Origin: Lytechinus pictus
Taxonomy: Eukaryota
DNA: 64,000 bases
NCBI RefSeq assembly: GCF_037042905.1
Contig: NC_087250.1
Span: 4,714,001-4,778,000 of the forward strand
Direction: 5' to 3'
Shown piece by piece: positions 1,549 through 52,061 of this stretch. The notes beneath the pieces were generated by a model that saw only the letters and a program-made list of their open reading frames with translations, was not told where the DNA came from and made no database searches. How positions within the stretch are numbered: position 1 is the first letter of the stretch; every line of letters starts with the position of its first letter. The position numbers and the translations under genes are program-made.

Positions 1549-1673
1549 TCACGAGGGTGGGGGTTTCTTCGGTGGATTTACACGCAGAATCGCCTTGAGG
1601 TCCTGTACGATTCGAAACTCGGAGGCTGTTCGACCAAGACTAGCAATCGATTCCACGTCAGTCATGTAGAGAT
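1549..1673 (-). CDS. PDZ-IL-1-like gene, terminal coding exon (last beta-trefoil strands plus Pro/Lys tail)
   Basis: Acceptor cccctacag|. The phase-1 frame reads (D)LYMTDVESIASLGRTASEFRIVQDLKAILRVNPPKKPPPS-TGA; the other two frames stop within a few codons. The phase matches the upstream exon 9278-9392. Confidence 0.75.
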
Positions 1674-3168: not shown

Positions 3169-4367
3169 CTGTTCTTGAATCCTCCGTACGCCACTGAGCC
3201 AAAAAAAAATCCGTTGTAATAACCACTACACTTTAAAGCAGATACGAACCAATAGCGCCATCTCGAGTCCTCAACTACTCATACCTGGCCAGTTTCCTGA
3301 CCCATAATGCTAGTGTAGTTTAGTAATATAGACCCACTTGAATGATAACATGCTAATTAACTACTCAATAGATTTATACCGGAATAATTATGTTACCAAG
3401 TAGCAAAACAATTACTTTTCCTCTCAAAACATTTTAGTTGTTTCTCTATACAAATACAATTATAGGTCAATTTATTCCATGTAGTATTAGTATATATCTG
3501 AAAACGTATATTTTTAAGACTATGTATTTATAACACACAGTTAATGAGAGACCACACACAGTTTAATCCCCCTTTAGAAACTGTGCTATATTATAATAAT
3601 AATTGTTCTTTGAAGGAGAGGGGACATAAAGCAAAACAAATACGGCACAACGCATGCCCTAAGCTAGATCACTACCTGGATATCCGCCATTGATATTTGA
3701 AACTCTATATTTTGAATAATTGATATGAAGGGGGGGGGGGGGGGTGTTTTACAAAGATTAAGTATGACTTATACCGTGTTTACACTTAATCGGCTTTTGG
3801 TTCAGAACCAAAAGCCGATGCAGAATCGGCGGAAGCGTCGGGTCAGCCGGGTTTTCTCTACTCTACAAATTTACTTGGATTTTGCCACTTTTTAACTTTC
3901 TTCATTGTATTTTACCTTATATGTGTGTTGCCTAACTGTACATAGTCAACCAGAAGTGATTCATTTTACTACTATCATTCATCAACGTGTGATTTTAATC
4001 AACGATTTGCAGTGGTAATGTAGCAACTATTACTACGGTCCCATTAACTGACTTTCGTGTTATTTTTGTACATTTGATTGCCACTGAACTCCACTCATGA
4101 GTCATGTACTTTATATATGGAGCTAGTCAGAGCTACGATTCTTTTTTTCTTGTTCATCGAAGTGACTGATTGCCTACTCTTGCCATTGTAGTTGAGCTTA
4201 TTCGTCTATTATCTCCTGGTATCATTGTTCATCATTCTATGCATTCTTCTATTCTTCATCCTTTCATGCCTTTGTGAGAAAAGGTGAATGAACTGAGTCT
4301 GAGTGATCACTTCAACTACATTGAGTCTAGACTATATACATTATCAGTCAATGCTTCAACTTCAAGT

Positions 4368-5087
4368 ATGACCACTAGGAGTATGGCCATGGAGAAATCA
4401 ACGGCAACTATGGTGTCTGCGGTGATTAAAGACATTCTCACTGATCCTAGGTTTGAAAGTGTTGTGGCTGGTCATATAGAGAAACGTCTGTTAGATATCA
4501 AGGAAGAACTACAAACCCAAGAAGCACGTATTCTTGACCTAGAATCAACATCGAAATCCAAGAGCGCTGAAATTGAATCCCTTCGATCCCAATTGGAAAC
4601 CCGAACGAACGCTTTAAATGCCTTGAACAATCGTCTGGAAGGTCTGGAGCAGTATTCTAGGAGAAATTCCCTTCGCTTCTTCGGCATTAAAGAATCACCT
4701 GGTGAGAACACAGATGACATCATTATAAAGCTTGCCACGGATAACCTGAAGATGAATCTGCGCAAAGAGGACATCGATCGCAGCCATCGCATAGGTCCAC
4801 CCAAGGAGTCCACCTCTGAAAACACCAAACCACGGGCTATCATCGTTAAGTTCTCTTCGTACAGGAAACGTCGCGAGGTCATCGGAAACCGGCGTAAATT
4901 AGCAGGTAAACGAATGTCCATCTTAGAAGACCTGACTGCAAAGAATGCTGTTCTTCTCAATGCCGCTCGCCTTAGTCCTAAAGTGAAATCTGCATGGTCC
5001 ATCGACGGTCGAATATTTGCATTACCAAATACTGCTGGTAGCGTGAAGAAACTCTTAACTTGTAAGGAAGATATAAACAAGCTCTGA
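4368..5087 (+). CDS. LINE ORF1p (coiled coil + RRM + CTD, Transposase_22-like)
   Basis: Motifs LEQYSRRNSLRFFGIKE, IDRSHRIG, PRAIIVKF, ILEDLT and AWSIDG. First in-frame ATG at 4368. Confidence 0.9.
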   Translation: MTTRSMAMEKSTATMVSAVIKDILTDPRFESVVAGHIEKRLLDIKEELQTQEARILDLESTSKSKSAEIESLRSQLETRTNALNALNNRLEGLEQYSRRNSLRFFGIKESPGENTDDIIIKLATDNLKMNLRKEDIDRSHRIGPPKESTSENTKPRAIIVKFSSYRKRREVIGNRRKLAGKRMSILEDLTAKNAVLLNAARLSPKVKSAWSIDGRIFALPNTAGSVKKLLTCKEDINKL

Positions 5088-5374
5088 TCACATGTATTGA
5101 TCTGCCATGTATACTTCTGGTTGACTCTTACCATTTATCCTCCTCACTATGAAACTGGACTCTTATCTCGAACTTTTTGAACTTTATAGCTACTTTTTTC
5201 CCACTTTGGCGGGACCAATGTTATTTGTAATACTGTATAGAATGTTTTCATATTTTGCATGTTTCTTGTTTCTCTTTCCTTATTATTCTCAACTACTCTG
5301 TTTTGTCTCAACTATTCCTCCTGTATCCTTTTCCTGTTATTTCTATTACTTTATTCTATTGCTTACACAACTTG

Positions 5375-8300
5375 ATGTCAGGTGATGATTTCTACAGTTG
5401 TAATACCAATGCTCCTTTGCAATTTTCATATATGTATGATTCTGTATTCCCTTTTCAGGGTATAGGTGACGATGAATTCAGTGCAATATTTCAAGATACA
5501 GTGACATGTACAGATTTTGATAGACATATGTTTAATGAACTCTCACAAAATAACGATGAATTCCATTTTAGCAGATTTCTTAACTGTAAATATTTTGTTG
5601 ACGACGATTTTACCTCTCAGTTCAACGACGTTCATAATCATTTTAGTATTCTTCATTTCAATTCTCGTAGTCTAAACAAAAACTTCAATGCTATCTCTAC
5701 TTTCATATCCACTTTGTGTATCGATTTCTCAATATACGGTTTCTCTGAAACATGGATCTGTAAAAATACTCCTTTGTTATTTAACATTCCAGGTTATTCT
5801 TTTGTCCACTCTAGCCGTCAACATGGCAAAGGTGGTGGTGTTGCTTTATTAGTTTCTGATACTTATAATTTTAATATCCGTAATGATTTTTTACAACCTT
5901 CAAATAATTATGAATCACTTTTTATTGAAATTGACATGTTTAGAGAAAAGAACATTATAATAGGTGTAATATACAGGAAACCTCAATCAAATATAAATGA
6001 ATTTTCAACCATCTTTGAAAATTGTTTAAACAAGCTTGATTCTGAAAACAAACAGGTTTATTTAATGGGTGACTTCAACATAGATATTTTGAAGTATACT
6101 AATGCTACTATAAGTAATTTTCTCAGTATAATACATTCTCACTTCTTTATTCCTTTAATTGACAAACCTTCTAGGGTTACTGCTGGATCTATGTCACTCA
6201 TTGATAATATATTTACCAATAATTTTGATTTAAATGTTTCCTCTGGTCTATTCTACAATGATATATCTGATCACTTCCCTATTTTTCAAATAACACAGAA
6301 ACAATTTCCTGTCCATGGTATTCCTGAGCTTAGTCTACGTCTTATCAATGATGATACTATTAATGCATTTAAACATGAGCTCCTAGATTATGACTGGACT
6401 AAATTATTTGATATTACTGATACAACGCTTGCTTTTGACAAATTTCTTGATACTTTTACTCTTTTATACAATAAAGTTTTTGTAACAAAATCATATAAAT
6501 CCACCCGTAAAAAATTAAAAAGCCATGGATTTCTCCTGATCTTTATAAAAAAATCAAAGATAAGAATAGAATTTATAAATCATATATATTAAACCCTTCT
6601 GAAAGCAACAGGCAAAAATATGTTAAAGCAAGAAACCATATAAATAGGTTATTAAGGTATGCTCGTAAAGACTATTACAAAACTAAATTTTTTGCAATGA
6701 AGGGAAATATGAAACAAACTTGGCGGCTCATCAATGATATATTACATAAAACAAAAAATAAATTACCAAATTACATCAATGCTGATGGAAGGCGAATCAC
6801 AGATTTTAAAGAGATAGCTGATTTTTTTAATACTTATTTCGTCAACATTGGTTTATCTTTAAACAATTCAATATCCCAGACTTCAAACAGCTCTGATAAT
6901 TTTACCAAATTCTTGCCCATGCAAAATTCAAATTCTCTTTACTTCAAACCTATTACTGAGAGCGATATCACTGATGTTGTTAAAAAGCTAAACTGTACAA
7001 ATAGTTGTGGCATTGATAATTTTAATCCTCGAGTTATAAAGAATGTTATATATTGTATAGTCAAACCATTATGTTTTATCTTTAATTTGTCTATTTTGAC
7101 TGGTATTGTACCTTTCAAATTAAAGATTGCAAAAGTTATACCTGTTCATAAGAAAAGTGATGTTCATGATGTTTTTAATTATCGACCAATTTCCATACTT
7201 CCTTATTTTTCAAAAATTCTGGAAAGGCTTATTTACAATCGACTTTATGATTTTTTATGTACAAATTCAATTTTAAATGAATGTCAATATGGTTTCCTAA
7301 AGAATGTATCAACCGAAATGGCTGTAATTGATTTACACGATTATTTAATTAATGTTTTCAATAAAAAACTTTACTCTATTGGAGTATTCTTAGACTTAAG
7401 CAAAGCTTTCGACACCATTGACTTTTCAGTACTTATATCAAAACTTTATAATTATGGAATAAGAGGGTTACCTCTTCAGTGGTTTCAGAATTATTTATAC
7501 AATAGAATTCAATACGTTTCTTTTAACAATATTTTGTCCAACCCATTAGAGATTTCATGCGGCGTGCCCCAGGGGTCAATCCTCGGGCCCCTCCTTTTTC
7601 TGATATATATCAATGACCTGCCTTTTCGTTCTGATAAATTGAAATTCATTTTATTTGCTGATGACACCAATATTTTATTTACTTCAAATGATATTACTTC
7701 TCTATATGACACATTAAACATTGAATTATTGAAAGTTTCGAACTGGTTTAAATGTAATAAATTGGTAATTAATGCTGATAAGTCTAACTTCATATACTTT
7801 TGTTCCCAATATCGACGTTTATCAGCAGATATCCTCGATTCATTTAAATTGGAAATGTCAGGAAACTATATCAAACGTGTTACCTCAACCAAATTCTTGG
7901 GTATTACTATTGATGAAAATTTATCTTGGAAAACTCATATAGCCCAAATTAACAAAACAATATCTAGAAATGTTGGTGTCATCAGCAAACTTCGCCATGT
8001 CTTGCCTCAATCCGTTTTGCTAATGTTATACAATACTCTTATTTTACCGTATCTCAGTTACTGTAATATTGTTTGGGCAAATACTCATCCAACCAAACTC
8101 AAATGTTTATACCTCCTGCAAAAGAGGGTTGTCAGAATAATTACACTTTCTCATTATCAAGCCCATTCTAGCCCACTATTTAAACAACTCAATATATTAG
8201 ATGTATACCAGTTAAATGACTATATGTGTGCAATTCTCATATTTAAACATGTAAACACTCAACTTCCTAAATACATATCGGATATGTTTGTAAAGAACAG

Positions 8301-8499
8301 TTTAATTCATACTTATAATACTAGAAACAGGAATCAATACCACAGATGGAATGTGAATACAGAATTTACTTTTTATTCATGTAGGCATCATGCTCCTACA
8401 ATCTGGAATTCACTCCCTACATTTATAACCTCTATTTCATTTTATAACAGATTTAAGCACAATGTAAAGCTATATTTGATCAAACGTGACTCTCGTTGA
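5375..8499 (+). CDS. LINE ORF2p, AP endonuclease + reverse transcriptase, with one -1 frameshift at ~6509-6514
   Basis: APE motifs HFNSRSL, SETW, GGGV, MGDFN, IDNIF and SDHFP; RT motifs YRPIS, QYGF, DLSKAFD, GVPQGSILGP, FADDT and FLG. Adding one A to the A6 run joins the two ORFs (KKIKKPWISP...). Confidence 0.9.
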
Positions 8500-9277: not shown

Positions 9278-9392
9278 CATTAGTGTTGGCTGCCTTGATT
9301 ATGGCTGAACCGGTAGGAGGCAATGTCAAGAAAAAGAACTTGTTATTCTGTGGTATCTGGAAACGGGGATTTGTCATCCAGCGAGGAAACTC
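9278..9392 (-). CDS. PDZ-IL-1-like gene, exon (KFFF strand region)
   Basis: Acceptor ctctctctattgtcag|, donor |gtaaga. 115 bp, phase 0 to 1; only one frame is open: EFPRWMTNPRFQIPQNNKFFFLTLPPTGSAIIKAANTN. Confidence 0.85.
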
Positions 9393-10199
9393 CTGACAAT
9401 AGAGAGAGAGGGAGGAGTGAGATTCGTATAGCTAAGGCTGTGCATTGTTTTACTTTAACAAAATAACGGAAACCGGGATTCCCAGTTATATTTCTCAAAA
9501 TAGCCAAACGATTTATAGTCTTTCATTTTTCATTTACATCATCATAATATTCAGGTTGTCTTCTTTATTTTGATACCAACTTTTTTATATGAATATTTAA
9601 CGTCAGATGTAGGACTAGCAAGAAGTGTTTGAAAATTCAATGTCAAAACCAAGTTGCGCAGGAAAAATGGGTCGAGATTTGTTAAAATCTTTAGTTGTTT
9701 TTTTTTTAAGTTTATTTCACTAAAGATGGGAGTGGGTTCAGATTCACAAGTGAGTTTCTACGCAAATCGTTTCTGACAAGCTTCCGTATTCATTTTTATT
9801 CATCCAATGCGTGAACAGTTCAGTAAGTATTTGGTCTCGAATCAAATTTTAGATTCCACTCTTACTATTGGTGTTTAATTTTATTTCATTTCATTTCTTC
9901 TTTATTTCACAATCTGACTAAAAAGTCAGGCTATGATAAAATAATATTTAATTGTTGTTAAATTGTCTCTAAGGACACGTTTCGTATTCTGTTGGACACA
10001 CTATACAACATGACAACCATGAGTGTAACTATTAAATAAGGAAAATTTGAGTTTGATGAATTTATGACATATTTTAACCTAATTTAACAAAAATACGCAA
10101 AAGTAAATAGATCAATGGAAATTAGACAACCCCATAAACAGATCAAATTAAAAGCAAGCCATAGGAGGTATTAGACATTGTGTTAGTTCGACCAACACA

Positions 10200-10525
10200 A
10201 TGATGATGATGATGATGAAAATGATGATGACGACGAAGATGATGATGATAATGATGATGATATAATGAAGATGATGGTGATGATGATTATGATGATGATG
10301 ATGATGAAATGATGATGATGATGATCATTAATTCATGATCATGATGATAGTGATGATGATAACGATGGTGATAATGATGCTGATAATGATGAATACGATG
10401 GTGATGATGATGATGATGATGATAATGATGATAGTGATGATAATGATGATAGTAATATGATGGGGATGATGATGATAATGATGATAGTGATGATGATGAT
10501 GGTGGTGATGATGATCACGATGACT
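10200..10525. repeat. Degenerate (GAT)n microsatellite
   Basis: Visible directly in the sequence. Confidence 0.95.
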
Positions 10526-10621
10526 TTTTCGGCGTTGAAAGCGATGAATAATGGCAGTGTTGCAAAAATTTTCGATTATTATGACGACATCTAAGACGAC
10601 CACGTAGGGCAATGAACTTAC

Positions 10622-10758
10622 TACCACGCGAAGGGGACCCGCAGTGACACCTTTAACGCACATCGGTCTGCGGGGTGACCCGGGTTCGGAGATGGCGATT
10701 GGATCTCCAGGGGGGGTTCCTCCACCTACAACTTGATAGTAGTTCAGGGTCACGTTTT
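10622..10758 (-). CDS. PDZ-IL-1-like gene, exon (beta4-beta7 equivalent)
   Basis: Acceptor ttttctttgtgactttgtcaacag|, donor |gtaagt. 137 bp, phase 1 to 0: (Q)NVTLNYYQVVGGGTPPGDPIAISEPGSPRRPMCVKGVTAGPLRVV, resembling the IL-1 'Y...G.PVAL...LSC...L' pattern. Confidence 0.85.
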
Positions 10759-11262
10759 CTGTTGACAAAGTCACAAAGAAAAGAAAAGATGTCTGCACCA
10801 AAATCTTTATCAGATTGCAGGAGAATGGCATGATGCATCTCGTTATTAGGAGATATTTTCGTTTTAATGAGGTGATATCGTTAAAACGAGATTTAAAAAA
10901 TGTATTTTAATCATCTTCCGCCCGGACTCCGGTACATTCACCAGTACAAAAGGTGCAACTCCGTACATTCACGAGTACAAGAAAAGGCATGTTTCATTCA
11001 CCGTCCTGCCAAATTTACACACGTCACACCATTGCACTCGACTCAAAGGTGTTTAATCAGAATAATGCAAATCTTTAAAATTCAATAACTTCGTTATTTG
11101 TTATCCGATTTTGATGACATTTTTAGCATTTTGCTGTATGAATTTTACTCTATTTATTTCGATATAAATATCTTCAGCCTGGAGCATCCCTTTAAATACC
11201 CCCGCATTCAACTCTTTATATACATGAAGCTACGTCTAGCGTCCATGCCTGAATTCTTTTAC

Positions 11263-11312
<50 letters not shown>

Positions 11313-11407
11313 ACCTACACCCGACAAAATAAATTATAATTGGTATAATGTCGAAAATCTGTCTATCTGACGGTCAATCGGATCGGGGTCGCCCTAGCCA
11401 CTTACCC

Positions 11408-12701
11408 GTCTCTGTGGTCAGTGGTTAAGGCACCGGCGCATGCACAGTGGGCCGGGGCGAAACAAAAAAGCGCCAAAAGTCATTTCGGGCAATTTCAGAT
11501 TTTTAATTTTTGTCATGCCCAGCTGAAAGACAAGACTTTGAAGAATACTTCAGCAAAATATTTCATTCGGGAATTTGCATAAAGATTGTTAATTTCCTAC
11601 CCTAAATCGTAAAATGTGACATTTTGCGAAATGCCGCGAATATGACAACTTAGTTGAAAAACAAGCTATTTCACAGGAGGTTTTTCATGTAGGAATCTGA
11701 AATGGCTCCAACATAATCCTGATATATTCTTTTTTTCATGTGAAAGGGTTCAAAGTAGATAAAAGACACTTTTAAGGAGGTTTATAGGATAATTATTCCT
11801 CGAAATAGGCTGATAATCCATGTTTTTTGCATTTACATGAGAAACGTTTCGATTTCCGTGAATTTCCGTTTAAATTCTATCATCATCATTTTGCCCGATG
11901 TCTAAGCTTTAATTCGATACCAAATTTAGCTGCCCGTTTTGCCCGTTTTTATGTTAGAGCCGATTTTACTTAAGACATCACCCCCAAAACCTGTTCAAAA
12001 ACGGTTATTTTTATACAGCGCAGTCATCGCAGCGCACCGTGTAGGGTGTACATTGCCGTTCATTTTTGCAATTTTGCACGGCGGGGACGATTCCCCTTCC
12101 ATTCCATGAAATTCCGGGCATAATGTTAACAAAATGAAGGTTGATAATGCATAAGGGCTACCCAGCCCTCTTCCAGAATTAAAAGTTACTTGTAGAATAA
12201 TTTCAGCCCAAAACCCTCCTCGTAGTAAAACATTCGTGATGTTATATACTCCGCGTTTTACCCAAGTCTACACAGCTTGATAAAGCACGGTTAATATTTT
12301 TCAGATTTTCAAGTATTTTTTTAATCCAATGATCATTTTGATGCCATAAAATTATTTTCAGGATCTCATACACACTTTTTAGGCATGTGAGCAGCATAAA
12401 CCAACATTCACTCTGGTCAATCTCAAAGTAACACATAACACAAAGTTTATATACTGCACATTATTTAGCGTAATATTCCTTTTCACAGAGGTTTTAAGTA
12501 GCCAATCTAAATTTGGTATCAAAGTGACGTCATATGGGCGTTGAATTATGTTCAGTCGATTCTACGCCAAAAATAACCCTTAATCAACATGTTAAAGTAA
12601 AAATATAACACGGAAAATAATTTTGGCGCACTGTCAACTCATTCTGGCCCACTGTGCGGCGTTCCAAGCTGGGGGCCCGGGTTCGATTCCCGGCAGAGAC
12701 A
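11408..12701 (+). pseudogene. tRNA-Gly(TCC)-like cloverleaf, interrupted by a transposon
   Basis: Joining 11408-11438 with 12662-12701 gives 71 nt: acceptor stem GTCTCTG/CAGAGAC, A box TGGTCAGTGG, anticodon arm CCGGC-GTTCCAA-GCTGG, T arm CCGGG-TTCGATT-CCCGG, followed by TTTTTT. Confidence 0.8.
11443..12656. mobile_element. Non-autonomous Transib-like element with RSS-like termini
   Basis: CACAGTGGGCC...GGCCCACTGTG, with a second block GCGCCAAAA at the same offset in both ends. CGGCG is duplicated (11434-11438 and 12657-12661). Confidence 0.8.
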
Positions 12702-14028
12702 TTTTTTCGGCATCACCAAATTTTTCCAAAGGGCAGATAGCTCTGGGGAACCTTGATTTAAGCTACGCCTACCATTGTTCTCTTCATCCATTTCTTTCAA
12801 AAAATGTTTAAAGTATACATCCAAAGAAAATTCACGAAAGTGATGATTATAGACAAATTATATATGAATGGAAAGGTCTTGTCTTTTTATACACAAATAT
12901 GTCACTAAAAAGTATTATTGATGTCGTGGAAATGCAAGAAATGAAATTATTAGAGACCCTTCTCAGCCCCCCAGCCGCCCCCAGACAGACAGTCACGCGA
13001 TCAAAAACAGTCGAGAATAATGACGTCACATGATCAACTCATCACTCTGTGCAAGCCAGCAGTACACTGATAGCTGAATCACCTTCCTGGTCTCTATTTT
13101 TCTTCGAATTTACCGTTTTCTTCATGTATTGTAATATCCGAATTCTGTTTTCGACAACTTCAGACTATAAGGGAACCAGAACTGTGTTATTTTGCCCGTT
13201 TTTTATTGAATTGTGAACTAGAAAGATCGATTTTGTCCACTCGACACGACAGTCTTCGTTGTGTTGCTCTACTAACTATTGAAAAACTCCAAGCTGCACG
13301 GTCCCATTCACTTGCTCCCGATGCATGTTGCAGGCTACGCTGTTTGATCCAGTCAAAAGTCAAGGTAAGCATGTTTGGAAACTGTACTTGTTCTGACGAT
13401 GCATTCAGGTCAGATGACAGATACAGATCTGATATAAGTTTAGAATCATGCATTTTGGCATAACTACTATTAACAAAATTAAAACGTTTTTATTTTAGAA
13501 ATAATGTTTTTGCACAATTCCAGCAGATTTTTCTTCAGATTTCTAAAACTGGTCAGGACTCAGGCAGGCGATTAAATTATTTAGGAGCACTGGTATGGAC
13601 CATGGCTGAAAATCTGCTGTTTCAGAGGAATGTTTAAGTTTTTATTATACACAGAATTATATCACCATGATGCCGATGTCATGAAGCCAGACAAATTTTC
13701 AGCAGTGATTACACTGATTCCTGGCCAAAATCACTCACACGTATTGCGAGGTTAGTATTAGTATACTAACCTCGCACCACGAACCGCGTTTGGCAGTGGA
13801 TTTCTAACTAGTGGGTCGCGCGTGCTGGGATCTCACTTCTTGGGTCCACGACTTCTATGGCTTGAATTTTCTGTGCGCGGCGGCATGTAATGAACCCTTG
13901 GGTGGGCCAAAATTAGAGTCTGGTGTTTCTTTCTGATTAGAGTGTTGCTGTATATATGTATGCGTAATGCCTTCAACAATGAAGATAAATGCAATCTTTG
14001 TAATGACACAGAGACTCAGAGAGCACCG

Positions 14029-14177
14029 TACCTCAAGTGATGTTCGTGTAGTCTCCACTTCACTACTGCTACAGCCTACACTACGCTACACACCTACCCG
14101 GGTAGGTGTGGCGTACATGTACGGTAGTGTAGCGGTAGTGAAGTGGAGTGGGGCCTACACAAACATCACTTGAGGTA
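14029..14177. mobile_element. 149-bp palindromic hAT-like MITE
   Basis: TIR TACCTCAAGTGATGTTYGTGTAG; 8-bp TSD GAGCACCG. Confidence 0.9.
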
Positions 14178-14375
14178 GAGCACCGGTGTTCTGAGTGGAA
14201 CTTTTCAGGTGTCTAAACCTACTATCATTTGTTGTTGACCGGGAATTACATGCCACCGCACGTCATCAATCAGCACGATAATTAAATTCATACTTTGATT
14301 TGATTATTTAAACTATTTCTTTTTTTCTCTCTTCTACACACAGATCTGCACACTTGCTGACTCTGGTGACTTCTG

Positions 14376-16417
14376 GGGCCCGTTTCATAAAGGTACAGCG
14401 TCAGCGTCAAGTCCCAAAACAGCGTCAAATTTTCACTTGCAGCGTCAAATTTAATATTTGACGCTGCAGCGCATTTCATAAAAAGTTGACGCTCCAGTGG
14501 GAGCGTCAACTTTTTACTGGAGCGTCAAGTATGGTTACTGGAGCGTCAAATAGGGTAAAATATTTGTCGCTGGTCATAGGGGAGCGTCAAGTTGACACTG
14601 TAAAGGGTTTTTCATTGTTAAGAATGGCGTACTTTGTGCTCAGGCATGCCCAAAGGACTCTTACAAGAAAACGGATATTTAGAGCAATGTCTGTGATAAT
14701 TAATAATGGTTACACTTCGTAATTCCGAAGGTTCTATATTTCGAAGGTTCGTAATTCCGAAGGTTCGTAATTCCGAAACACGTAAATTGCCTATACCTCG
14801 ATGTTCGTCAATCCGAACATTTGTGGCGTTATTCCGAAGGTTCGATAATCTGAAAACGAAATAAGGTTCGATGTTCCAATGGTTCGTTAGTCTGAAAACG
14901 AAATAAGGTTTGTTAATCATTATGTTTTCGGAATCACGAACCTCATTTTGTTTTCGGATTAACAAACCTTCGTAATTACAAACCTCACTTTGTTTTCGGA
15001 CTAACGAACCTTCGGAATAACGAACCTTATTTCGTTTTCGGACTTACGAACTTTCGGAATTACGAACCTTCGGAATAACGAACCTTCGGAATATGCGAAC
15101 CATTGGAATAACGAAGCTTCGGAATTACGAATGTATGCGTTAATAATGCTAATAACATGAATAAAGAATATATTAAGGGAACGCTTTCTAGTAGAAATGC
15201 AGTTTCTTTTTTGTCCTACCTACCAAAAAAAAATTGTTAAAAAATTCTTCCGAAACAACAAATTTTTCAGTTTATCACAGGGCAGGCCAAGGAAAAAAAA
15301 GGGAAGTTATAGACAGACTTTAAAAAAAGAAGACAAATGGAGAGGATTTTTTTTCTTGTAGGAAAAAATAGAGGAAGGTAGATCTATCATGTGGAAGTGT
15401 TTAATTTAAAGCCTAAATTAAAAAAAGTCCTAGGCCATAAAAAAAATGATAAAACCTTTTTTTCTGTTTCTGACTTTCTCAACAACAAAAAAGTCGTGGC
15501 CATGGCATTGTGGAATCCGTTTACTTTTAAAGTTTTAGTTTACGGTACTGAATGGTTATTCGCCGTTGAAACCGATAACTTAAAAATATTTCCATTATGA
15601 ACAAAAATAATCTTTTAAGGTCATTTTCGATGTTTCATACATAATTAGAGCCTACAAATTTACTTGCTTCAGGGTGATTTTTAATAGCACTGCACCAGCA
15701 GTGGCCTGCGCCTGCCTTGTTGTTGATACAACATTGCATTACCGACACAAATAGTCAAGTGTGGGACTGGGATGGAAATTGTACGGTATAAACTTTGTTG
15801 AAGGTGAAATTTCGACCGGCAATAATAATAAATTTTCCCCCTTTTTAAAATAATTTTTTCCCTGGCATAGGGCTAAATTAAATCAATTCTCTGAAAACTT
15901 ACACAATGGAGAAACAATGCTATGCCATCCTGTGACAAATTGATATTTTCTTCTTACTCTCTTCTAGAATTGCAAACTATCGCCATAGAGCCATCACTCT
16001 GCTTCAACTGCTAGTCTTATGCTGCAGACCCTGTTTGCAGCTGCTAAATAATAATTTCGCTCCCGAAAAAATTAATAAGCAAAAAAAAATAATAATATTC
16101 TCTTTCAATTTTTTTTCTTCTAATTTTGCTTCTCAAAGGGGGGGGGGGGGGCACGGGCCGGCTGTGCCCCCCCCCCCCCCTGGATCCGCCAGTGCTTTCT
16201 ACCTAAACTTATGACTTGAATTGAAAACAAAAAACTGGAGAGAAAGGGGATTTCCCCCTAATCAGCCTCGTACATGACTATTCAAATAAATAGCTGGAAA
16301 GTCAAGCTGACTTTCCAGCGAATGTGCTTTTATGAAATGCAAAGTTGCTAGCATAGCAAGCAAAAGCTGCTATTCTACCAGAGTTGCTATGATAGCAACT
16401 CTTTATGAAATGGGCCC
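14376..16417. mobile_element. PIF/Harbinger-like non-autonomous element
   Basis: GGGCCCGTTTCATAAAG / CTTTATGAAATGGGCCC, flanked by CTG and CAG, with AGCGTCAA subterminal repeats at the left end. The two ends could belong to different copies. Confidence 0.55.
14709..15139. mobile_element. Foldback/Mutator-like MITE with modular TIRs
   Basis: Tandem TTCGTAATTCCGAAGG units on the left, inverted on the right; TTAATAATG duplicated at 14700-14708 and 15140-15148. Confidence 0.8.
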
Positions 16418-18537
16418 CAGGTCTCTGCTTGCTACCTCAATCTGGGAGATTCCATCATGTCCTTTTTACTATGATTTGGATATAGCCATTTTTTTCTTCA
16501 CTCTTTCCAGGACCTACGGTTTGCAAGTTGTGGACTGATAATGATACAAAAGAAAAATGTTCTTTATCAATCTTGGAAACAATTTTGAGCACAGTTTTGG
16601 AGAGAACTAAGAAATTTGACTTGGACAGGAATACAGCTTGTCAAAAATAATAACACACAATTTAAACGAAAGAACAATTTTAATGTTACTAGGGCATTTT
16701 GCGAGAAATTTTATACTCAATCACACCATCACACGTCCCAAATCAAGGGTAAGTCCTTTGATTAAACATGTAGTTGAATTGCGATTGCAACTCGACCTTA
16801 TTACGCTTGAATTTGAATTTAAGACTTACGCTTGATTTGCAATTGAACATAAGTTTCTTGCAGTGCCCCATAATTATGTTTTGTTATCAGATATTTAACG
16901 TGCTGATTTTTCTCGAAAGGTATAATATATTTGTCCTTTTAAACGGTATTTGAATATGGGTACGCCTTTTATTTGTTTTCCACAATATTTATTGTATGTA
17001 TGAACAGAAGTGAAATATTTATTGTGAAGCACTGTGAATGTTGTGTGATGGTTCATCATTTTTGTTATAAGACTGAAAGCCTGGTGGATGTGAGGAAGTG
17101 GCCTGGATGAAAGAAAAGTGAACATGTGTCCAATTTGCATATTCTAAGACAATTTTGTTTCTGGATAAATTTTGCTATGCATTCCCTACATTAAGAGTAA
17201 AGGAGAAGTCCACGCAATCAAAAATTCATTTGAATTCAAAGAAAAATAACAAGATATTGCAGGAAATTTCATAAAAACTTTGATTCAAATTTATATAAAT
17301 ACTATTTTAATAGTTCCGTAAATATAACCTATTGTGATCAGATGAAGAGTTTCCTATCGTCAAATCTGCAAAGAATAAAAAACAAAATGCCACAAAAAAT
17401 AGAAACGAATGTGATGTGAGTGACAACTCTAATTTGCATTGTTTTGTGTATATTACTGTTTTGAGTAAAAACAACAAGGGAAATTACTCTATTCAAATAA
17501 TTTTTAGTTGATGTGGACTTGACTTTTAACTCTACCCCTCCCATCCCAAATAAGAGTAGAAATAATCTAATCAAGAACTTGAAAATCAAAAGCAGCAATT
17601 AAGAAGCAAGATTTCATAAATACAGGTCTGAATACAATTTCACAAGAAAATAAAAAGAGAAAAAAAGATGGGTAGTTACGGGGAAGGAATAAAAAAAAAA
17701 GTACCCAGAAAAAAAAATCCGAGTTTCGAACCAGGGTCCTCGCACATGACAAAACAATGGCCAACACATTTGGCCACAGACCATCACCCTACCGGGAGGC
17801 ATTTTTAAGATATATGAAAGAAAGTCCGCTCGCCGCTGTTTCCTAATAATGCTTCGGCAATTCAACTGCATTTTCAGTCATTTCGCGATGGATATTGCCG
17901 TGTTTTTGTGTGGTTCCTGACTTCGCTACTTAATGAAATTTCATAATTTTTGTTCAGTCATAAAGAAGAATGTCTATGCTTTATATTGATTATAACATTA
18001 ATGTGACGCAAGTGTGATTTCTACGTGAAAATATGCTTTGTTTATTCACATATATTTCTTGAAAAAAAAAAAATTCTAAGCTAAATATCGGTTACCAAAA
18101 TACGTTAAATGTGCATTTTTTTTTCACTGTTCAGTAAATTCAAGCTTTTATCTATATAACAAGACCAATCTTCAGAGGAATAAACAATTCTAAGAGCAAA
18201 AAACGCTGATTGGAAAGATCGTCTCCAATTGGCTGCTGTCAGCTCAGCTGCTCACTGCTCATTGTGTGACGTCACTCAGCTGGAGCTCGCAAGAGGACCG
18301 GTGGAGGGCAGAAATATGGCATGAAAATAAATCATTTTTGAGAGCTGATTTCTGCAATCTCTGATCACTATTTTGAAAAGTGAAGTTATTTATCTGATTA
18401 GTAATACTTCCCCTTACAATGATGACCACATAAAGTCATTATAAAATACTTTTGATTCTTCGGATGTATACTTTAAATAAAAGAGTTGCCAAAGCTGTTG
18501 TACATGTATAATTTCACCAAAAAAAACCCCCCAAAAA

Positions 18538-18568
<31 letters not shown>

Positions 18569-18609
18569 CTATATATATATGTATTTATTTTTTAAAATAA
18601 TAAACTTAC

Positions 18610-18828
18610 GGCGTGTCAAAACGTACGTTGCCAGTCTTTTACCGATCTTTGTGAATAGATCGTGGCTCTTTTCAATGAGTTCAACTTGTTCTTGGCTCTT
18701 ATATTCATAGGACGGTTTCACATCAAATGCAGTCTTGGCCGAAAGTAATTCAATGAAAGAGTTGTCCTCACTTCCGCTGTCCAACAGATGCCTTGAAATG
18801 GTTTCCACAATCGGTCGTCCATCTATCA
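18610..18828 (-). CDS. PDZ-IL-1-like gene, exon (linker plus beta1-beta3)
   Basis: Acceptor tgttgtgcttcatag| (an in-frame alternative AG gives a start at 18822), donor |gtaagt. Phase 1 to 1: (V)IDGRPIVETISRHLLDSGSEDNSFIELLSAKTAFDVKPSYEYKSQEQVELIEKSHDLFTKIGKRLATYVLTR. Confidence 0.85.
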
Positions 18829-20152: not shown

Positions 20153-20219
20153 CTTTTTCGTTGAGATGGAAAGCATATAACCACTTCTCCTCGTCTTGGT
20201 GCTCTTTCCGTTTGATAAC
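20153..20219 (-). CDS. PDZ-IL-1-like gene, small exon (end of PDZ)
   Basis: Acceptor ctttctttgaattgtag|, donor aag|gtgtga. 67 bp, phase 0 to 1: VIKRKEHQDEEKWLYAFHLNEK. Confidence 0.7.
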
Positions 20220-21564: not shown

Positions 21565-21673
21565 CAATCCAATACGAGTACCGATATCTGCCAAACACTC
21601 TAGGACTGCTAACTGGATTGTATTGGTCAAATCAGTCTCAATGTTGTTGATACTCAGCAATTCATCATGATTT
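21565..21673 (-). CDS. PDZ-IL-1-like gene, exon (PDZ C-terminal half)
   Basis: Acceptor attctttgctacag|, donor |gtaagg. 109 bp, phase 2 to 0: (R)NHDELLSINNIETDLTNTIQLAVLECLADIGTRIGL, matching the PDZ 'GD.ILxIN' motif. Confidence 0.85.
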
Positions 21674-24435: not shown

Positions 24436-24554
24436 CTTAGTCCGACATCATATGCCAATCCGGAGCCATCGATATCCCTGATCACGTGACGACAATCATG
24501 AGAGTGAAGGCGAGCTCCGAAGTAAGTGACAGCGTAGGGTTTGTCGGTGACATA
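24436..24554 (-). CDS. PDZ-IL-1-like gene, exon (PDZ N-terminal half)
   Basis: Acceptor tttttgtacag|, donor ag|gtaagt. 119 bp, phase 0 to 2: YVTDKPYAVTYFGARLHSHDCRHVIRDIDGSGLAYDVGL, with a carboxylate-loop-like YFGA and the 'G.A...GL' motif. Confidence 0.85.
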
Positions 24555-25540
24555 CTGTACAAAAATCTTCCTAATATTCGGAAGCTGAGTGTAGATTGAA
24601 TTTTCAAAAATGTGAATTAAAAATTATACATAAAGATTTACAAAGTTATAAAAAAAATATTAAGTCGAAAAATATATCGATATGTATATTCCTAATAATA
24701 TGAATTAAGATGCATACATATGAATATATATAACATTGAGCAGATGATGATATTAAAAATATTAAATAATAAGATGGATATAACATTCCTATGTATATGT
24801 ACGTATAATATTGTGCAGTTAAAACCTTTAAAGATATTAAAAATATCAAATTATTATATGTATATGTTTATACTGTGCATATCAAATAAAAGTTTACACT
24901 TTGAAAATGTCCTTGTTATTATAAACAGGGGCGTGGTTACTGGGGGCGGGGGGCACGTGTCCCCATGGTCCCCCTTTGGAGCCGTGTTATGTGCAAACGC
25001 CGGGATATGTGTAAACAACTGTATATGTCCAACATTTCGCCGGGTTTTGTGCAAACAACGGAATTTGTGCAAACGCCACGCCGGGAAACGTGCAAATCTG
25101 TCAAAATTTATCAACTGCATCTGTGCAAACGTGACGACGGGATATGTGCAAATCACTGTTTTTATCAATATAAAGGCTATTTCTCATGAAATGTTTCATT
25201 AAATTACTGTTAAAATGAGAAACATGCCTGCATAAGGGAGAAGCTACAGTGCCATCGGCAATGTAACGCTTTTCAGAGAGGCGGCGGGGGGGGGGGGGGG
25301 GGGGGCATCAGACTAAAATTTAAGGGACACTAAATTTCGAACACTGCCTGAGGCACTTTTAAGGCAAATGGGGCACAAACGTATTATTGTTTTTGGTCAT
25401 TCGGGCGAGAGATGTTATACCCATTACCCACACTGTTATAACACCCTCAAACGTATAACACATTACACACTAAGATCGCCGGCAAATGGGCAAATGGACT
25501 CAGACACACCATTGTGTGCAATGGATATATATAAACATAC

Positions 25541-26141: not shown

Positions 26142-26745
26142 TAGAGTGTAGTCTTTTAATACTCCAGACCCGGTCATTTAACAATTTGAAGATCCTTCTA
26201 AACTAAGATCCTGTACTAAAAAGCATACGTAAAGAGCATAGTCTTTCAAAAATAATTAAAAACTGCAACACCTCACCGTCTACCAAATTAAGACCCTGTA
26301 AAAATGAATATAGAATGTAATATTTACCCCAGACCCTGTTATATTAATAACAATAAAACAAATCAAATTTAAGAACCTACCGTCTCATTCCTGTGGAATA
26401 ACATGAGTATAAAGTTTAGTCTTTTACTACAGACCGGGTGATTAAACAAATTCAAAACTATTAAAACCCCGCCATCTTCCACTACTAAGACTCTGTAATA
26501 AAGAACGTATATAACGTATTCTCAATTCTCCACACCCGTTTATTTAAACAAATCTTCAAGACCCCACAGTCTCATTCCTGTGAACAACGGAATGGAGTAG
26601 GAGCGCCATTTTTTAGTTCTAGTCATGAAATTTTCATAATATGACCTTCATCGTCAGGAACCATTATTTGAGGTAAAGACCGGTTGATTATATCAATATA
26701 ACATTCGGTGTATCATCTGACGTATTTTGGGGGATTTCCCCCCTA

Positions 26746-27618: not shown

Positions 27619-30023
27619 AAGAATAAGAACCCACGATTATTCTTGTTGCCCTAATACTAGAGCAAAGTTTTTCCGGAATGTTCTTCAAATTCTAGTAACT
27701 CATATCCTATGTAAAAATCAAAACGCCTTAGTTGGATCAAAGCTCACCAACACGGTCATAGGCCTACAGTCTTTATACACAGGTGTATGCTGTTTGAATT
27801 GCTTACAAGAAGCTAACCTTGTGTTAGTGTCTCTACCAAATATCTGTAATATCGAATTCTTATAGGCCTGGTAGTGTATAATCCATATTTTGACATAAAC
27901 ATTGTTTCCAAATCGTTTAGTAAACGAAACACATTTTAATATTCATACAGCTATAATGTAAAGGTTGTAATTTATCCCCCAAGCAAACAAAAACAACAAC
28001 ATCCAAATCTTCATAAGTCCTTCACCTAAAGCAAATACAAAAAAAAATATCTGCAATGATTAGTAAACAAAAAATATATATTGTGAGATGCATTCGCCAA
28101 AATGTGAGGACTTGTATTAGTATGTGAATCTTTTATTTGAAATCTGTCAATTTCTACAGAGATTGCTAAACATAATATTATCTTCATACCTTACTATGCA
28201 CTTATTATGATATCCATTTAGCCAGATGTGCAGATATTATGTGGTATTGTTGTTTGGGGAAAAGAAAAACTATAAATGTCACAATTCATATAGATTGTAT
28301 AATGGAAGAATATGGAGAAAAAAATTTTTGTAAACAAATCAATTTGAATGAATTGAAGATACAGTGTGTATTTCATCTAACTACATATGAATTTGCACGC
28401 GGTTGTATAGCTTGCTCAAATACATCCGAGTCGGGATCTATCTTTAACTTAAATAGTGACGATTTATGCAGATGTTAAACACAAGACTATTATAAGTATA
28501 TAAATCCTTCACTAAATGTGAAATATATATAATCCTAAAATACATCTAATTCAATGTGGAACTTCTGTTTCAAATGTGACAATTACTGCAGATATTGTCA
28601 TCAAAGCATAAGATTATCATTAGTATATAAATCATATCTCACTATATATTATCAGATCCATTCAGCCAAAAGTTGAAAATATTTGGTTGTGTTTTGTTCG
28701 AGGAAATTATCAAATATATTATTTTTGTAAACAACAAAATCTGAATAATTTGACAATATATCGTGAGACTCATAGATGTGAATGTTTACACGCGGTTGCA
28801 TTTTATTAAAATACATTCGATTCATTATCAATCTTTTACTTGGAATGTAACGACTCTGTAGACACTTTTTTTCAATCATAACTAAAAAATGAATATGTCA
28901 TTTTTTGTATCAAATATATCTAGCTCCAGTTAAATCTTTTATTTATATGTGATCCGACAATTTCTGCAAAAGTTGTTAAACATTGAACTATCATTAGTAT
29001 ACAAACCATATATACAGTGAGATGCATTTGCCAAATGTGAAGATATGAGGTAATATTTTATCCAAACATATATCTAATTCTATGTGGATCTAATATTTGA
29101 AATTTGTCATTTTCTGCAGATATTTTTTATTAAACATATAAGATTATCATCAATATACAAATTATATTTCAATATGCATTATTAGATTCAATCAACAAAA
29201 TATGAAAATATGTGGTTGTGTTTTGTTCGAGGGAAAACAACTACCTGTAAGTCTTTATAGAGCTTCAGTTAAATGCGATAATTTCTAGATTATCTAGAAG
29301 GAAAATATTGAATATATTATATTGTCTTTGTAAACACCACAATTAAATGTCAACATATCATGATATTCATTTAGCTAGTTGTGAAAGTGTACGCTAAATC
29401 TAGCTCTATGTGAATTTTCCTTTTTTTTCATACTGGCGATGCGAAATTTCTGCAGAAATTGTTAAAGAAGTGACTACCATTAGTATACTTCATATTTCAT
29501 CACATATTGTGAGACTCTAATATGAAGACATGTGGATGTATTTTGTGGATCTCGTTTTTTTTTTATTGCTGTAGAACTAGAATGTGAAGGTGCACACGCG
29601 GGTGTAGTTTATTCACCGTGAGCTGATATCAATCTTTTACGGGAATTCAATTCTCCAATAATCACCTCCATCATCATTGTCATCATTGTCATAATTTTCA
29701 TCATCATCATCATCATCATAATCACCAACAGCAAATTCGATTTCACATTCATCCTTTATTAGTTTTTTTAAACTTCATCCTCTCTTCATCTCATCTCCAT
29801 TACTACCACCATCTTGCTGTTATGACACAGAAAATTTACACACAAATCACATATCATACCAATAATCTTAAGTTTTCGGTAATACCAAATTATCCTCCTG
29901 AGTAATGACATGGACATTTTTTCTATTTTCTATTTTTTATTTTCATGGACATTTTTTCTATATTCTATTTTCTATTTTCTATTTTTTCTATTTTTTCTAT
30001 TTTCTATATTCTATTTTCTATTT

Positions 30024-51764: not shown

Positions 51765-52061
51765 CCGATGTTCGTCATTATTAAGTTCATCTGGTGATTC
51801 TTGCGGTGAAGCGGTGTTTACTGCGGTTCCTTCCGCATTAGGTGGGGGATTCCCTCCAACCGCTTCCTTCTCTACCGCTTCCTTCTCTACCGCCCGCTTC
51901 GCGCGTATTTCTTCTTGTTTCGCACCCTCACTTACGCCAACGCTGCGTTGGACTTGGCCTTCCGTTACCGGTGATCCCGCTGCGGTAACCCTATCGGTTC
52001 CTTGGCTTTTAGAGGCTGAAGCCCTCCCTTTGGAGCCATGTACTTCCATTGTCGAATTCAT
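51765..52061 (-). CDS. Candidate alternative N-terminal exon, 99 aa, low complexity (A/E/S/G-rich)
   Basis: Acceptor ttttcactgcacag| (exon starts 52070), ATG at 52061, donor cgg|gtaaga, phase 0. GC-rich open frame MNSTMEVHGSKG...DELNNDEHR, in phase with the exon at 24554. Confidence 0.5.

Follow-up and report, generated by a model that had tools for sequence, protein, structure and literature searches.

Whether true IL-1 exists in invertebrates has long been an open question, and IL-1-like activities were reported from sea stars in the 1980s. The locus described here lies in a window of 64,000 nucleotides from the sea urchin Lytechinus pictus, and it poses the question at the level of gene structure: do the introns that interrupt its C-terminal domain mark descent in common with the vertebrate IL-1 genes?

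Overall organization of LOC135154474

The introns in question belong to LOC135154474 of L. pictus, a gene of ~50 kb on the minus strand that carries the RefSeq label "uncharacterized" and with which exon 6 is 100% identical. The gene product comprises a divergent PDZ domain together with a β-trefoil at the C-terminus. Splicing of the window sequence rebuilt the RefSeq protein P0001 exactly, with GT-AG at every intron; the intron phases run 0,2,0,1,1,0,1, all eight exons are open (8/8), and all splice sites are canonical. The features of the gene, in the order of its transcription, are as follows.

51765..52049, minus strand: first coding exon in its ancestral form, MEVHGSKG...DEHR (95 codons), phase 0 at the donor, located by tblastn of P0002, P0003 and P0035
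29909..32908, plus strand: second LINE fragment, reverse transcriptase across two ORFs (RVT_1 E 1.7e-8 and 2.5e-26)
26381..26404, minus strand: alternative first coding exon of P0001, MLFHRNET, 24 nt, phase 0 out, from the exact P0001 reconstruction
24436..24584, minus strand: exon 2, PDZ domain (first half), 149 nt, phase 0 in and 2 out (reconstruction, Pfam, AF2)
21565..21673, minus strand: exon 3, PDZ domain (second half), 109 nt, phase 2 in and 0 out (reconstruction, Pfam, AF2)
20153..20219, minus strand: exon 4, final PDZ strand plus the opening arm of a long β-hairpin, 67 nt, phase 0 in and 1 out
18610..18828, minus strand: exon 5 in its long form, second hairpin arm, disordered linker of ~23 residues and β1-β3, phase 1 in and out
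10622..10758, minus strand: exon 6, β4-β7 (xNVTLNYY...PLRVV), 137 nt, phase 1 in and 0 out
9278..9392, minus strand: exon 7, short helix (FPRWM) and β8-β9, 115 nt, phase 0 in and 1 out
4278..8499, plus strand: LINE in the last intron, with coiled-coil ORF1, endonuclease and reverse transcriptase (Pfam Exo_endo_phos_2 E 2.7e-7, RVT_1 E 2.8e-35)
1549..1673, minus strand: exon 8, β10-β12 (DLYMT...EFRIV), C-terminal tail and stop, starting ATCTCTACATG

The ancestral first exon (51765..52049) codes for a disordered N-terminal region and is left unused by the RefSeq model P0001. A TATA-like ATAAATA lies ~40 nt upstream of it, and is common to the tandem paralogue. The LINE fragment at 29909..32908 is located in the 25-kb stretch between this exon and the RefSeq first exon. 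The last intron (9277-1674, phase 1) spans 7.6 kb and ends just before DLYMT; much of its length is due to the LINE at 4278..8499 that sits inside.

A sequence-only reading of this DNA had placed a phase-1 intron just upstream of the strand VTLNYY and a phase-0 intron right after PLRVV, the two bounding a 137-bp exon, and an additional phase-1 intron before DLYMT. All of these are borne out by the exact spliced reconstruction of P0001. The bounded exon is exon 6 (10758-10622), which is flanked by the acceptor caacag|AAAACG and the donor GTGGTA|gtaagt, and whose counterpart in the paralogue is likewise 137 nt long. The span covered by that reading, 9278-18828, opens with exon 5 and closes with exon 7, and the DLYMT exon (1549-1673) falls outside it.

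The C-terminal domain is predicted to adopt an IL-1-type β-trefoil

An AF2 model was made on the tandem paralogue P0003, which is 79% identical to the product of LOC135154474 (pTM of 0.71; pLDDT of at least 90 in 209 of 394 residues). Residues 89-177 are confidently predicted to form a PDZ-like fold, as judged from the model. The C-terminal domain is modeled as a 12-strand β-trefoil with pLDDT mostly above 90, and the IL-1-type assignment of this fold concerns the paralogue model, not the product of LOC135154474 itself. A second AF2 job on the trefoil alone (P0009) gave a poor model with a pLDDT of 60.9, and was left out.

Structural similarity searches with the P0003 trefoil gave three rankings, each of which is topped by chains of the IL-1 family. 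In Foldseek, the matches at E<=0.001 are without exception IL-1β or IL-18 (20/20). In the second look with VIA, IL-18 (Z 15.5-17.7) and chicken IL-1β (Z 15.2-15.7) take up the first 19 rows, the best IL-18 chain reaching a Z of 17.7 with an RMSD of 2.2 over 137 aligned residues, compared to a Z of 14.9 for the best non-IL-1 trefoil. The wide VIA search put IL-1α first at a Z of 16.3, with a runner-up at 14.7. The nearest named clusters in the ESM Atlas are IL-18, IL-33 and IL-1 (0.75-0.81), which serve as a lead only. Altogether, the vertebrate IL-1β and IL-18 structures (PDB 2I1B, 3WO2, 4XFT and others) share with the model a 12-strand trefoil over 131-139 residues, with RMSDs of 2.1-2.6 and Z of 15.2-17.7.

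Trefoils of other families also fit the model, as would be expected of a domain that reached this fold by convergence, for instance from a lectin- or FGF-like origin, with coincidental intron matches. Many β-trefoil families score a Z of 12-14.9. FGF and ricin-type lectin trefoils have the same fold and reach a Z of 13.8-14.9 (FGFs, 13.8-14.1), but with 114-128 aligned residues, and they are absent from the Foldseek matches at E<=0.001. On these grounds, an FGF- or lectin-like identity was set aside. However, because lectin modules, FGFs and IL-33 trail by merely 1.5-3 Z units, the fold alone is insufficient to establish membership of the family.

Trefoil introns agree with vertebrate IL-1 genes in position and phase

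The introns were placed on the paralogue model at the resolution of strands, not residue by residue, the structural matches being known as ranges only. The first of the two trefoil introns, of phase 1, falls in codon Q265, two residues ahead of β4 (267-276). The second, of phase 0, separates V310 from A311 where β7 (308-311) ends. For human IL1B we take the intron residues to be QQV/VFSM and LQLE/SV, in keeping with its exon sizes.

The vertebrate IL-1β gene has the intron phases II,0,I,I,0, and its last three exons encode all 12 strands; as in LOC135154474, a phase-1 intron lies upstream of β1 and is followed by phases 1 and 0 inside the trefoil (PMC4880838). The phases 1,1,0 of the IL-1 superfamily around and within the 12-strand region are thus found in LOC135154474 at the level of strands. 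According to PMC13736523, the two central trefoil introns have kept both phase and place between the human IL-1 genes and invertebrate PDZ-IL-1 genes.

In a simulation that placed three random introns in a domain of 147 residues, a chance match to the two vertebrate-type introns, in place as well as phase, arose in 0.1% of cases within ±2 residues, 0.5% within ±5 and 1.1% within ±8. A probability of ~0.001-0.01 for the double match argues against coincidence in an unrelated trefoil. In FGF genes, the middle exon measures 104 bp and the phases are 0 and 2, unlike the phases 1 and 0 in LOC135154474.

Comparison with LpicIL-1.4 (LOC129260728) extends the agreement within the species. All six introns of LpicIL-1.4 align with introns 2-7 of LOC135154474 in the same phase, one of them being off by one codon; the intron of exon 3 is also found there in the same place and phase. 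LpicIL-1.4 shares as well the phase-1 intron before β10, which is extra with respect to vertebrate IL-1β. Since the two genes keep this intron in the same place and phase while their products are only 29% identical, it is an old trait of echinoid genes, which vertebrate IL-1β has either lost or never had.

As the simplest reading of the intron agreement, these data support common descent of the exons that encode the trefoil. The claim that the introns point to homology with IL-1 is supported by strand-level position, phase and fold; it is not new, having been reported for the family by Fontenla-Iglesias et al. (Nat Ecol Evol, 30 Sep 2026, PMC13736523).

Sequence relatives within the IL-1anc family

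A phmmer search against 1.84 billion representatives found 18 proteins at E<=0.001, ten of them named and all ten from echinoderms. Among the matches are LpicIL-1.4 (E 2.2e-17) and PminIL-1.3 (LOC119723835; E 1.2e-6), both of which are listed in Table S2 of PMC13736523 and hence accepted members of the IL-1anc family. The N-terminal PDZ domain that characterizes this family is present in LOC135154474. In P0001, the Pfam profiles PDZ_6 (E 0.019) and PDZ (E 0.03) match residues 27-98, both below the curated cut-offs, and Pfam PDZ was matched in 12 of the 18 family members, with a best E of 1.7e-8. The gene structure of IL-1anc is found as well, with phases 2,0 in the PDZ domain and 1,1,0,1 around and in the trefoil, the same as in LpicIL-1.4.

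The trefoil itself has diverged from IL-1 in sequence, which by itself would suit a trefoil of other origin. No significant match of the LOC135154474 protein to IL-1 was found: the Pfam IL1 profile (PF00340) gave no match at E<=10 on P0001, P0002 or P0003, leaving the product short of the gathering score for the IL-1 superfamily, a profile of ten trefoil domains matched no PDB chain at E<=10, and the 22 weak matches of P0001 in the PDB (best E 0.4) are mainly PDZ domains and include no IL-1. The (F/L)ES motif of strand β9, an IL-1anc hallmark that is "often" but not always conserved (PMC13736523), is absent and reads IKA in both LOC135154474 and P0003. By contrast, PminIL-1.3, which was found by plain phmmer, has FES and is the one member of the 18 matched by Pfam IL1 (E 0.0017; 18.4 bits against a cut-off of 25). 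Its trefoil aligned by phmmer with IL-36α in the PDB at E=1, the FES region included. A match of the same trefoil to Nup120 (E 0.23-0.36) was judged to be chance.

An alternative donor would restore strand β3

For the intron that precedes VTLNYY there are two possible donors, and the phase is 1 with either of them. The first, ATCG|gtaaaa, ends exon 5 at 18643 and is the RefSeq choice; the second, CGCC|gtaagt, ends it at 18610 and is intact in LOC135154474. The tandem paralogue uses the downstream C|gtaagt, as read from its DNA, and the relatives' protein models imply this site as well. The RefSeq end at 18643 removes GKRLATYVLTR, which corresponds to strand β3, and among the 17 sequences that cover this block of the alignment only P0001 has a gap. 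The RefSeq model therefore probably uses the wrong donor and so loses β3; the long form, with its donor at 18610 and β3 kept, is most likely the one that functions. At the other end of exon 5 there are two candidate acceptors, 6 nt apart (start at 18828 or 18822).

RNA was checked over 9200-20300 with three raw runs (~6% of each) and one contig set. In the ~6% samples, depth was 0-0.05 in the exon 6 bins, 0-0.11 in the exon 4 bin and 0.4-2.3 in the exon 7 bin, where the reads may be intronic. None of the splice joints from this region came from LOC135154474 among the 15 listed of 91. Mapping of the runs also revealed an abundant RNA in 9200-20300; tRNA and Rfam scans of 11000-19000, in search of its source, gave no match.

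Proposed identity and alternative readings

Taken together, LOC135154474 is very probably a gene of the IL-1anc family, coding for an apparently leaderless protein in which a disordered N-terminus is followed by a divergent PDZ domain, then a flexible linker and, at the C-terminus, an IL-1-type β-trefoil whose exons derive by common descent. The assignment builds on the observed exon phases, the predicted fold of the paralogue, the sequence homology to two published members and the strand-level agreement of introns. By analogy with the S. purpuratus genes (PMC13736523), the pro-form would be made in the cytosol of phagocytic coelomocytes after immune challenge and cut in the linker upstream of β1, as a caspase cuts SpurIL-1.3 at Asp184 (PMC13736523). 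Following the same analogy, the cut protein would leave the cell without a signal peptide, and the released trefoil may bind an Ig-TIR receptor of the IL-1R type.

A protein of IL-1 fold and ancestry could instead serve inside the cell, as a PDZ scaffold or nuclear factor rather than a secreted ligand. No signal peptide is apparent, both candidate N-termini being hydrophilic as judged by eye, and within the protein constraint is strongest in the PDZ domain. According to PMC13736523, the S. purpuratus proteins localize to the cytoplasm or nucleus when expressed in 293T cells, and IL-1 genes are linked with IL-1R-like genes except in sea urchins. Against this, the vertebrate IL-1α, IL-1β and IL-33 are likewise leaderless and cytosolic or nuclear before release (PMC13736523), and the fish nIL-1F, of the same architecture, is a reported binder of IL-1R1 (PMC7144542). 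We consider an exclusively intracellular role rather unlikely.

It is improbable, too, that LOC135154474 is a true IL-1anc duplicate that is decaying or silent and yields no working cytokine, although the copy bears some marks of this. Against the tandem paralogue, dN/dS is 0.5-1.05 in the trefoil exons, and changes affect 19 of 78 strand residues and 20 of 64 residues outside (p=0.45), with no significant sparing of strands; relaxed constraint on LOC135154474 is therefore possible. In addition, the ancestral exon 1 has Glu at codon 2, where the paralogue and an older RefSeq model that shares this exon have Gly, the RefSeq donor removes β3, and LINEs swell the gene to 50 kb compared to ~20.5 kb in the paralogue. 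However, the open exons, the canonical splice sites, the intact conserved donor C|gtaagt and a dN/dS of 0.11 in the PDZ exons all speak for a maintained gene. The C-terminal tail QDLKAIL retains the motif of other urchin members (SLKDIF, SLKQLF, DFLKLF); the frameshifted tail is that of the paralogue. As for silence, several S. purpuratus members are undetectable before infection (PMC13736523).

A trefoil unrelated to IL-1 by descent, for which the Z scores of other families, the lack of a sequence match and the missing FES would speak, is very improbable in view of the structure rankings, the intron match, PminIL-1.3 and the fish nIL-1F, an accepted IL-1 family member with the same PDZ-plus-IL-1 architecture (PMC7144542).

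Relation to known systems and significance

As an IL-1anc gene, LOC135154474 falls into a known family without having been catalogued there. The published members (LpicIL-1.4, PminIL-1.3 and SpurIL-1.1 to 1.5) have the same N-terminal PDZ domain and C-terminal IL-1 trefoil, as well as eight exons, of which 2-3 encode the PDZ and 5-8 the trefoil, according to the authors' reply to reviewers (PMC13736523). They lack a signal peptide, and none is apparent in LOC135154474. LOC135154474 differs in reading IKA instead of the (F/L)ES hallmark, and its relatives begin with MGxxxSK. The fish nIL-1F and nIL-1Fm also have a PDZ followed by an IL-1 family domain (PMC7144542), and nIL-1F is grouped within IL-1anc (PMC13736523). 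Vertebrate IL-1β and IL-18 have a leaderless pro-form with an N-terminal pro-piece, as LOC135154474 probably does, but have no PDZ domain and are only 10-15% identical to it; LOC135154474 also lacks the FES motif.

The L. pictus IL-1anc genes given in Table S2 of PMC13736523 are LOC129278821, LOC129278820, LOC129260727, LOC129260728 and LOC129279149. In the seven supplementary files of that paper, no match was found to LOC135154474, to its paralogues LOC129263531 and LOC129263514, to L. variegatus LOC121416645, or to S. purpuratus LOC100889353 and LOC100892317. We tentatively suggest that these genes, together with Diadema proteins, might form an echinoid branch of IL-1anc outside the published catalogue, FES-less, starting with MGxxxSK, perhaps lipid-anchored, and combining a fast cytokine domain with a constant PDZ. 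The missing FES hallmark may be one cause for such a branch to have been overlooked by a motif-guided screen. MGxxxSK is an N-myristoylation-type motif, by which a lipid anchor may attach the pro-cytokine to membranes.

Introns that agree in place and phase provide evidence of descent that is independent of sequence likeness, and for this family the case has been published (PMC13736523). The present analysis adds modestly to it an independent check on a gene unlisted there, evidence for a further urchin tandem cluster, a probable RefSeq error and the idea of a putative N-myristoylation. If the suggested branch is real, the IL-1-like genes of sea urchins would exceed the five counted per species, and if its members are anchored to membranes, this would be relevant to the exit route of leaderless IL-1s.

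Gene identity and exon organization

The 45-residue peptide encoded by exon 6 had matches at E<=10 in two of 76 candidate proteins. It is 100% identical to part of P0001, the 303-aa RefSeq product of L. pictus LOC135154474, annotated as "uncharacterized protein", and shares 76% identity with L. variegatus LOC121416645. P0001 was rebuilt exactly from the window DNA, with GT-AG required at each intron and every exon on the minus strand.

Exons of LOC135154474 in the window
26404-26381, minus strand, exon 1 (RefSeq), 24 nt, phase 0 out
24584-24436, minus strand, exon 2, 149 nt, phase 0 to 2
21673-21565, minus strand, exon 3, 109 nt, phase 2 to 0
20219-20153, minus strand, exon 4, 67 nt, phase 0 to 1
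18828-18643, minus strand, exon 5 (RefSeq form), 186 nt, phase 1 to 1
10758-10622, minus strand, exon 6, 137 nt, phase 1 to 0
9392-9278, minus strand, exon 7, 115 nt, phase 0 to 1
1673-1549, minus strand, exon 8, 125 nt including the stop, phase 1 in

This reconstruction agrees with the sequence-only reading, which had described a 137-bp exon with phase-1 and phase-0 borders and a phase-1 intron ahead of DLYMT. The span it assigned (9278-18828) takes in exons 5 to 7 end to end, but the DLYMT exon falls outside it. The intron before that exon is 7.6 kb long and contains a LINE with endonuclease and reverse transcriptase. This element (4278-8499, plus strand) has a coiled-coil ORF1 of 269 aa, together with endonuclease and reverse-transcriptase ORFs of 453 and 662 aa; at 6511-6589 the latter pair overlap in different reading frames, which leaves ORF2 split by one frameshift. 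A long ATC/ATT-rich microsatellite (10180-10560) begins ~60 nt past the donor of exon 6, and the raw ORF reaches 192 aa because the open frame through exon 6 continues into it. The L. variegatus RefSeq model P0002 terminates by read-through of the same donor (...DVVVS).

The window occupies 4,714,001-4,778,000 of contig 6. Directly downstream of LOC135154474, on the same strand, lies the tandem paralogue LOC129263531 (contig 6 4,689,230-4,709,758; product P0003). Further relatives are found ~1 Mb away on contig 6, where P0003 has eight or more additional exon-sized matches (5,785,598-5,861,963, plus strand). These probably come from LOC129263514, LOC129263515 and LOC129263516, which would form a second cluster of the branch. 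Elsewhere in the window, two blocks of short tandem repeats (58100-58939 and 61835-62381) yield identical repetitive peptides (SAEQ..., APPT...), each block on the strand opposite to the other, and resemble inverted copies of a single satellite-like array.

Probable corrections to the RefSeq gene model

The relatives P0002, P0003 and P0035 (an older RefSeq model, XP_054757412.1) match a 95-codon exon further upstream (52049-51765), which has a phase-0 donor and is preceded by a TATA-like ATAAATA common to LOC135154474 and its paralogue. By sequence comparison it is the ancestral first exon, and the gene would therefore span about 50 kb. Codon 2 of this exon (52044-52046) reads GAA (Glu) here and GGA (Gly) in exon 1 of the paralogue; P0035 carries the same exon with Gly2 (MGVHGSKG), and Glu2 may reflect allelic variation or a fault in the assembly. 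P0035 itself looks like a chimera of the two genes: its exons 1 and 2 match LOC135154474 best (98% and 94%, vs 70% and 90% for the paralogue), exons 5-8 are closer to the paralogue, and exon 3 is uninformative.

Exon 5 has two phase-1 donors, the RefSeq choice ATCG/gtaaaa (end 18643) and CGCC/gtaagt (end 18610), 33 bases further on. An open frame encoding GKRLATYVLTR spans the interval, and the downstream donor is the one used in the DNA of the tandem paralogue. Among 17 aligned sequences spanning this block, P0001 alone is gapped. The block forms strand β3 in the structure model of P0003, so the RefSeq product would be without one trefoil strand. The long form, with the donor at 18610 and β3 kept, is likely the functional product, and the RefSeq model is probably wrong at this one donor site. 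Exon 5 also has two acceptors 6 nt apart (start 18828 or 18822), the choice of which adds or omits Val-Ile.

Sequence relatives and fold of the C-terminal domain

Pfam search of P0001 gave a weak PDZ match alone (E 0.019-0.03, under cut-offs), with no match in the C-terminal 190 residues; comparison with PDB sequences returned weak matches, mostly PDZ domains, and no IL-1. A phmmer search against 1.84 billion representatives found 18 proteins at E<=0.001, and the ten looked up are all echinoderm (Strongylocentrotus, Lytechinus, Diadema, Patiria, Asterias and Acanthaster). Twelve of the 18 are hit by PDZ profiles and one, from Patiria, by the Pfam IL1 profile, at E 0.0017 and 18.4 bits against a cut-off of 25. 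Two are entries in Table S2 of PMC13736523, LpicIL-1.4 (LOC129260728) and PminIL-1.3 (LOC119723835), which ties LOC135154474 by plain sequence homology to IL-1anc, the PDZ + IL-1 trefoil family of that paper. This architecture is shared by fish nIL-1F (PMC7144542).

AlphaFold2 modelling used an 18-sequence alignment and the tandem paralogue P0003, which is 79% identical, shares the exon structure and retains β3; pTM was 0.71, with pLDDT>=90 at 209 of 394 residues.

Regions of the P0003 model (residues)
1-85, disordered N-terminus
89-177, PDZ-like domain
180-207, long hairpin
between hairpin and trefoil, low-confidence linker
231-377, 12-strand trefoil

Structural similarity search of the trefoil against the PDB using Foldseek gave IL-1β or IL-18 for all 20 matches at E<=0.001, the first other protein standing at rank 29. 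VIA-align against 48,161 representative chains placed IL-1α at the top (Z 16.3, rmsd 2.2 over 137 residues), above a band of trefoils from many families (Z 12-14.7). In a second look at the Foldseek list with VIA, the top 19 entries were IL-18 (Z 15.5-17.7) and chicken IL-1β (Z 15.2-15.7), with the best non-IL-1 trefoil at Z 14.9. These three rankings therefore point to a predicted trefoil closest to the IL-1 cytokines, by a margin over other trefoils that is moderate, not overwhelming. The ESM Atlas agrees with this placement, as a lead only.

Introns on the fold and the vertebrate pattern

Introns mapped on the model (P0003 numbering)
codon D194, phase-1 intron, hairpin tip, 37 residues before β1
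codon Q265, phase-1 intron, two residues before β4 (267-276)
V310/A311, phase-0 intron, end of β7 (308-311)
codon D350, phase-1 intron, two residues before β10 (352-358)

Exon 5 thus carries β1-3, exon 6 β4-7, exon 7 a short helix and β8-9, and exon 8 β10-12. The coding exons of human IL-1β measure 47, 52, 202, 165, 131 and 213 bp, which fits the QQV/VFSM and LQLE/SV places named in the sequence-only reading. IL-1β genes are described as having the "typical arrangement (II, 0, I, I, 0)", with 1, 1, 0 as the last three phases and the twelve strands within the last three exons (PMC4880838). LOC135154474 follows the same order of phase 1, strands, phase 1, strands, phase 0, strands, but has one further intron. 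With three introns placed at random in the 147-residue domain, the chance of both vertebrate-type introns matching in place and phase was 0.1% within ±2 residues, rising to 1.1% within ±8. The proposal that intron places and phases mirror those of vertebrate IL-1 genes and support homology is thus supported, at the level of strand order and of the phases quoted from PMC4880838.

In the paralogue, introns 1/2, 2/3, 6/7 and 7/8 (compared by script) and 5/6 (by eye), that is, all but the two junctions flanking its exon 4, lie at the same places and in the same phases, and its exon 6 is likewise 137 bp. LOC129260728, on another contig, has six introns of phases 2, 0, 1, 1, 0 and 1 at the aligned places of introns 2-7 of LOC135154474, one being off by a single codon. 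This comparison is the more telling because the protein is only 29% identical. The intron before DLYMT is shared with LOC129260728, so among these genes it is old, and not peculiar to LOC135154474.

Selection and transcription

In LOC135154474 every exon is open and every splice site canonical. Nei-Gojobori comparison with the tandem paralogue gave a dN/dS of 0.11 for the PDZ exons, 0.68 for the first exon, and 1.05, 0.52 and 0.83 for exons 5, 6 and 7, respectively; exon 8 was left out because the two tails run in different frames after EFRIV. The tail peptide of the paralogue's last exon (contig 6 4,689,230-4,689,366), ...PQGGSACKSTEETPTLVM, matches window 1609-1547 in another frame. The tail of LOC135154474 keeps the motif of other urchin members, so the paralogue is probably the frameshifted copy. 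Differences between the two are not rarer in strands (19/78) than elsewhere (20/64; p=0.45). The fast change of the cytokine domain would fit either diversifying selection or relaxed constraint.

In three thinly sampled RNA runs, which carry little weight, the exons of LOC135154474 were not covered by reads. Thousands of reads, mostly at 95-99% identity, fall on 11331-11438, 12657-12797 and 18472-18596; they join the three stretches with extra letters in between, and, provided that the libraries follow the common stranded protocol, their mate orientation suggests plus-strand RNA. The stretch at ~12640-12720 contains a tRNA-like T-arm box (GGTTCGATTCCCGG), and ARAGORN and Rfam found nothing on the covered stretches. 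These resemble a dispersed SINE-type repeat of which other copies are abundantly transcribed.

N-terminus and proposed mechanism

An MG start with a pattern of the N-myristoylation type (e.g. MGIHASKG, MGGKASKK, MGSKASKH, MGCAATK) occurs in 14 of the 35 sequences examined (P0002, P0003, P0005, P0006, P0008, P0012, P0020, P0021, P0023, P0024, P0029, P0030, P0032 and P0035). Sea star and amphioxus entries of Table S2 also begin MGC.. or MGK... (PMC13736523). The words myristoyl, palmitoyl and lipid are absent from the main text of that paper, and myristoyl from its supplements. That pro-IL-1anc could be lipid-anchored is put forward as an idea from these N-termini.

The gene structure, domain architecture, fold and family membership of LOC135154474 are shown by the present analysis; for its mode of action, we infer the following by analogy with published proteins of S. 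purpuratus and of vertebrates. A leaderless pro-form would be made in phagocytes on infection and cut in the exposed linker upstream of β1, as caspases cut SpurIL-1.3 at Asp184 and IL-1β at Asp116 (PMC13736523). Candidate Asp residues in this linker lie in LLDS, SEDN and AFDV. The product would then leave the cell without a signal peptide and be sensed by an Ig-TIR receptor.

Relation to the published family

The inference of IL-1 homology made in the sequence-only reading is correct and already in print for the family (PMC13736523). LOC135154474 has no match in the seven supplementary files of that paper, nor have LOC129263531, LOC129263514, LOC129263515, LOC121416645, LOC100889353 or LOC100892317, and the word Lytechinus is absent from its main text. 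The authors' reply to reviewers mentions >80 further annotated ambulacrarian members and names subfamilies eI, eIV and eV, so they may know this branch. The β9 hallmark (F/L)ES reads IKA in the branch of LOC135154474, which may explain why a motif-guided screen passed it over. LOC135154474 belongs to a known family but is missing from its catalogue: with the intron-sharing principle already published, what it adds is this member and a probable donor error in RefSeq.
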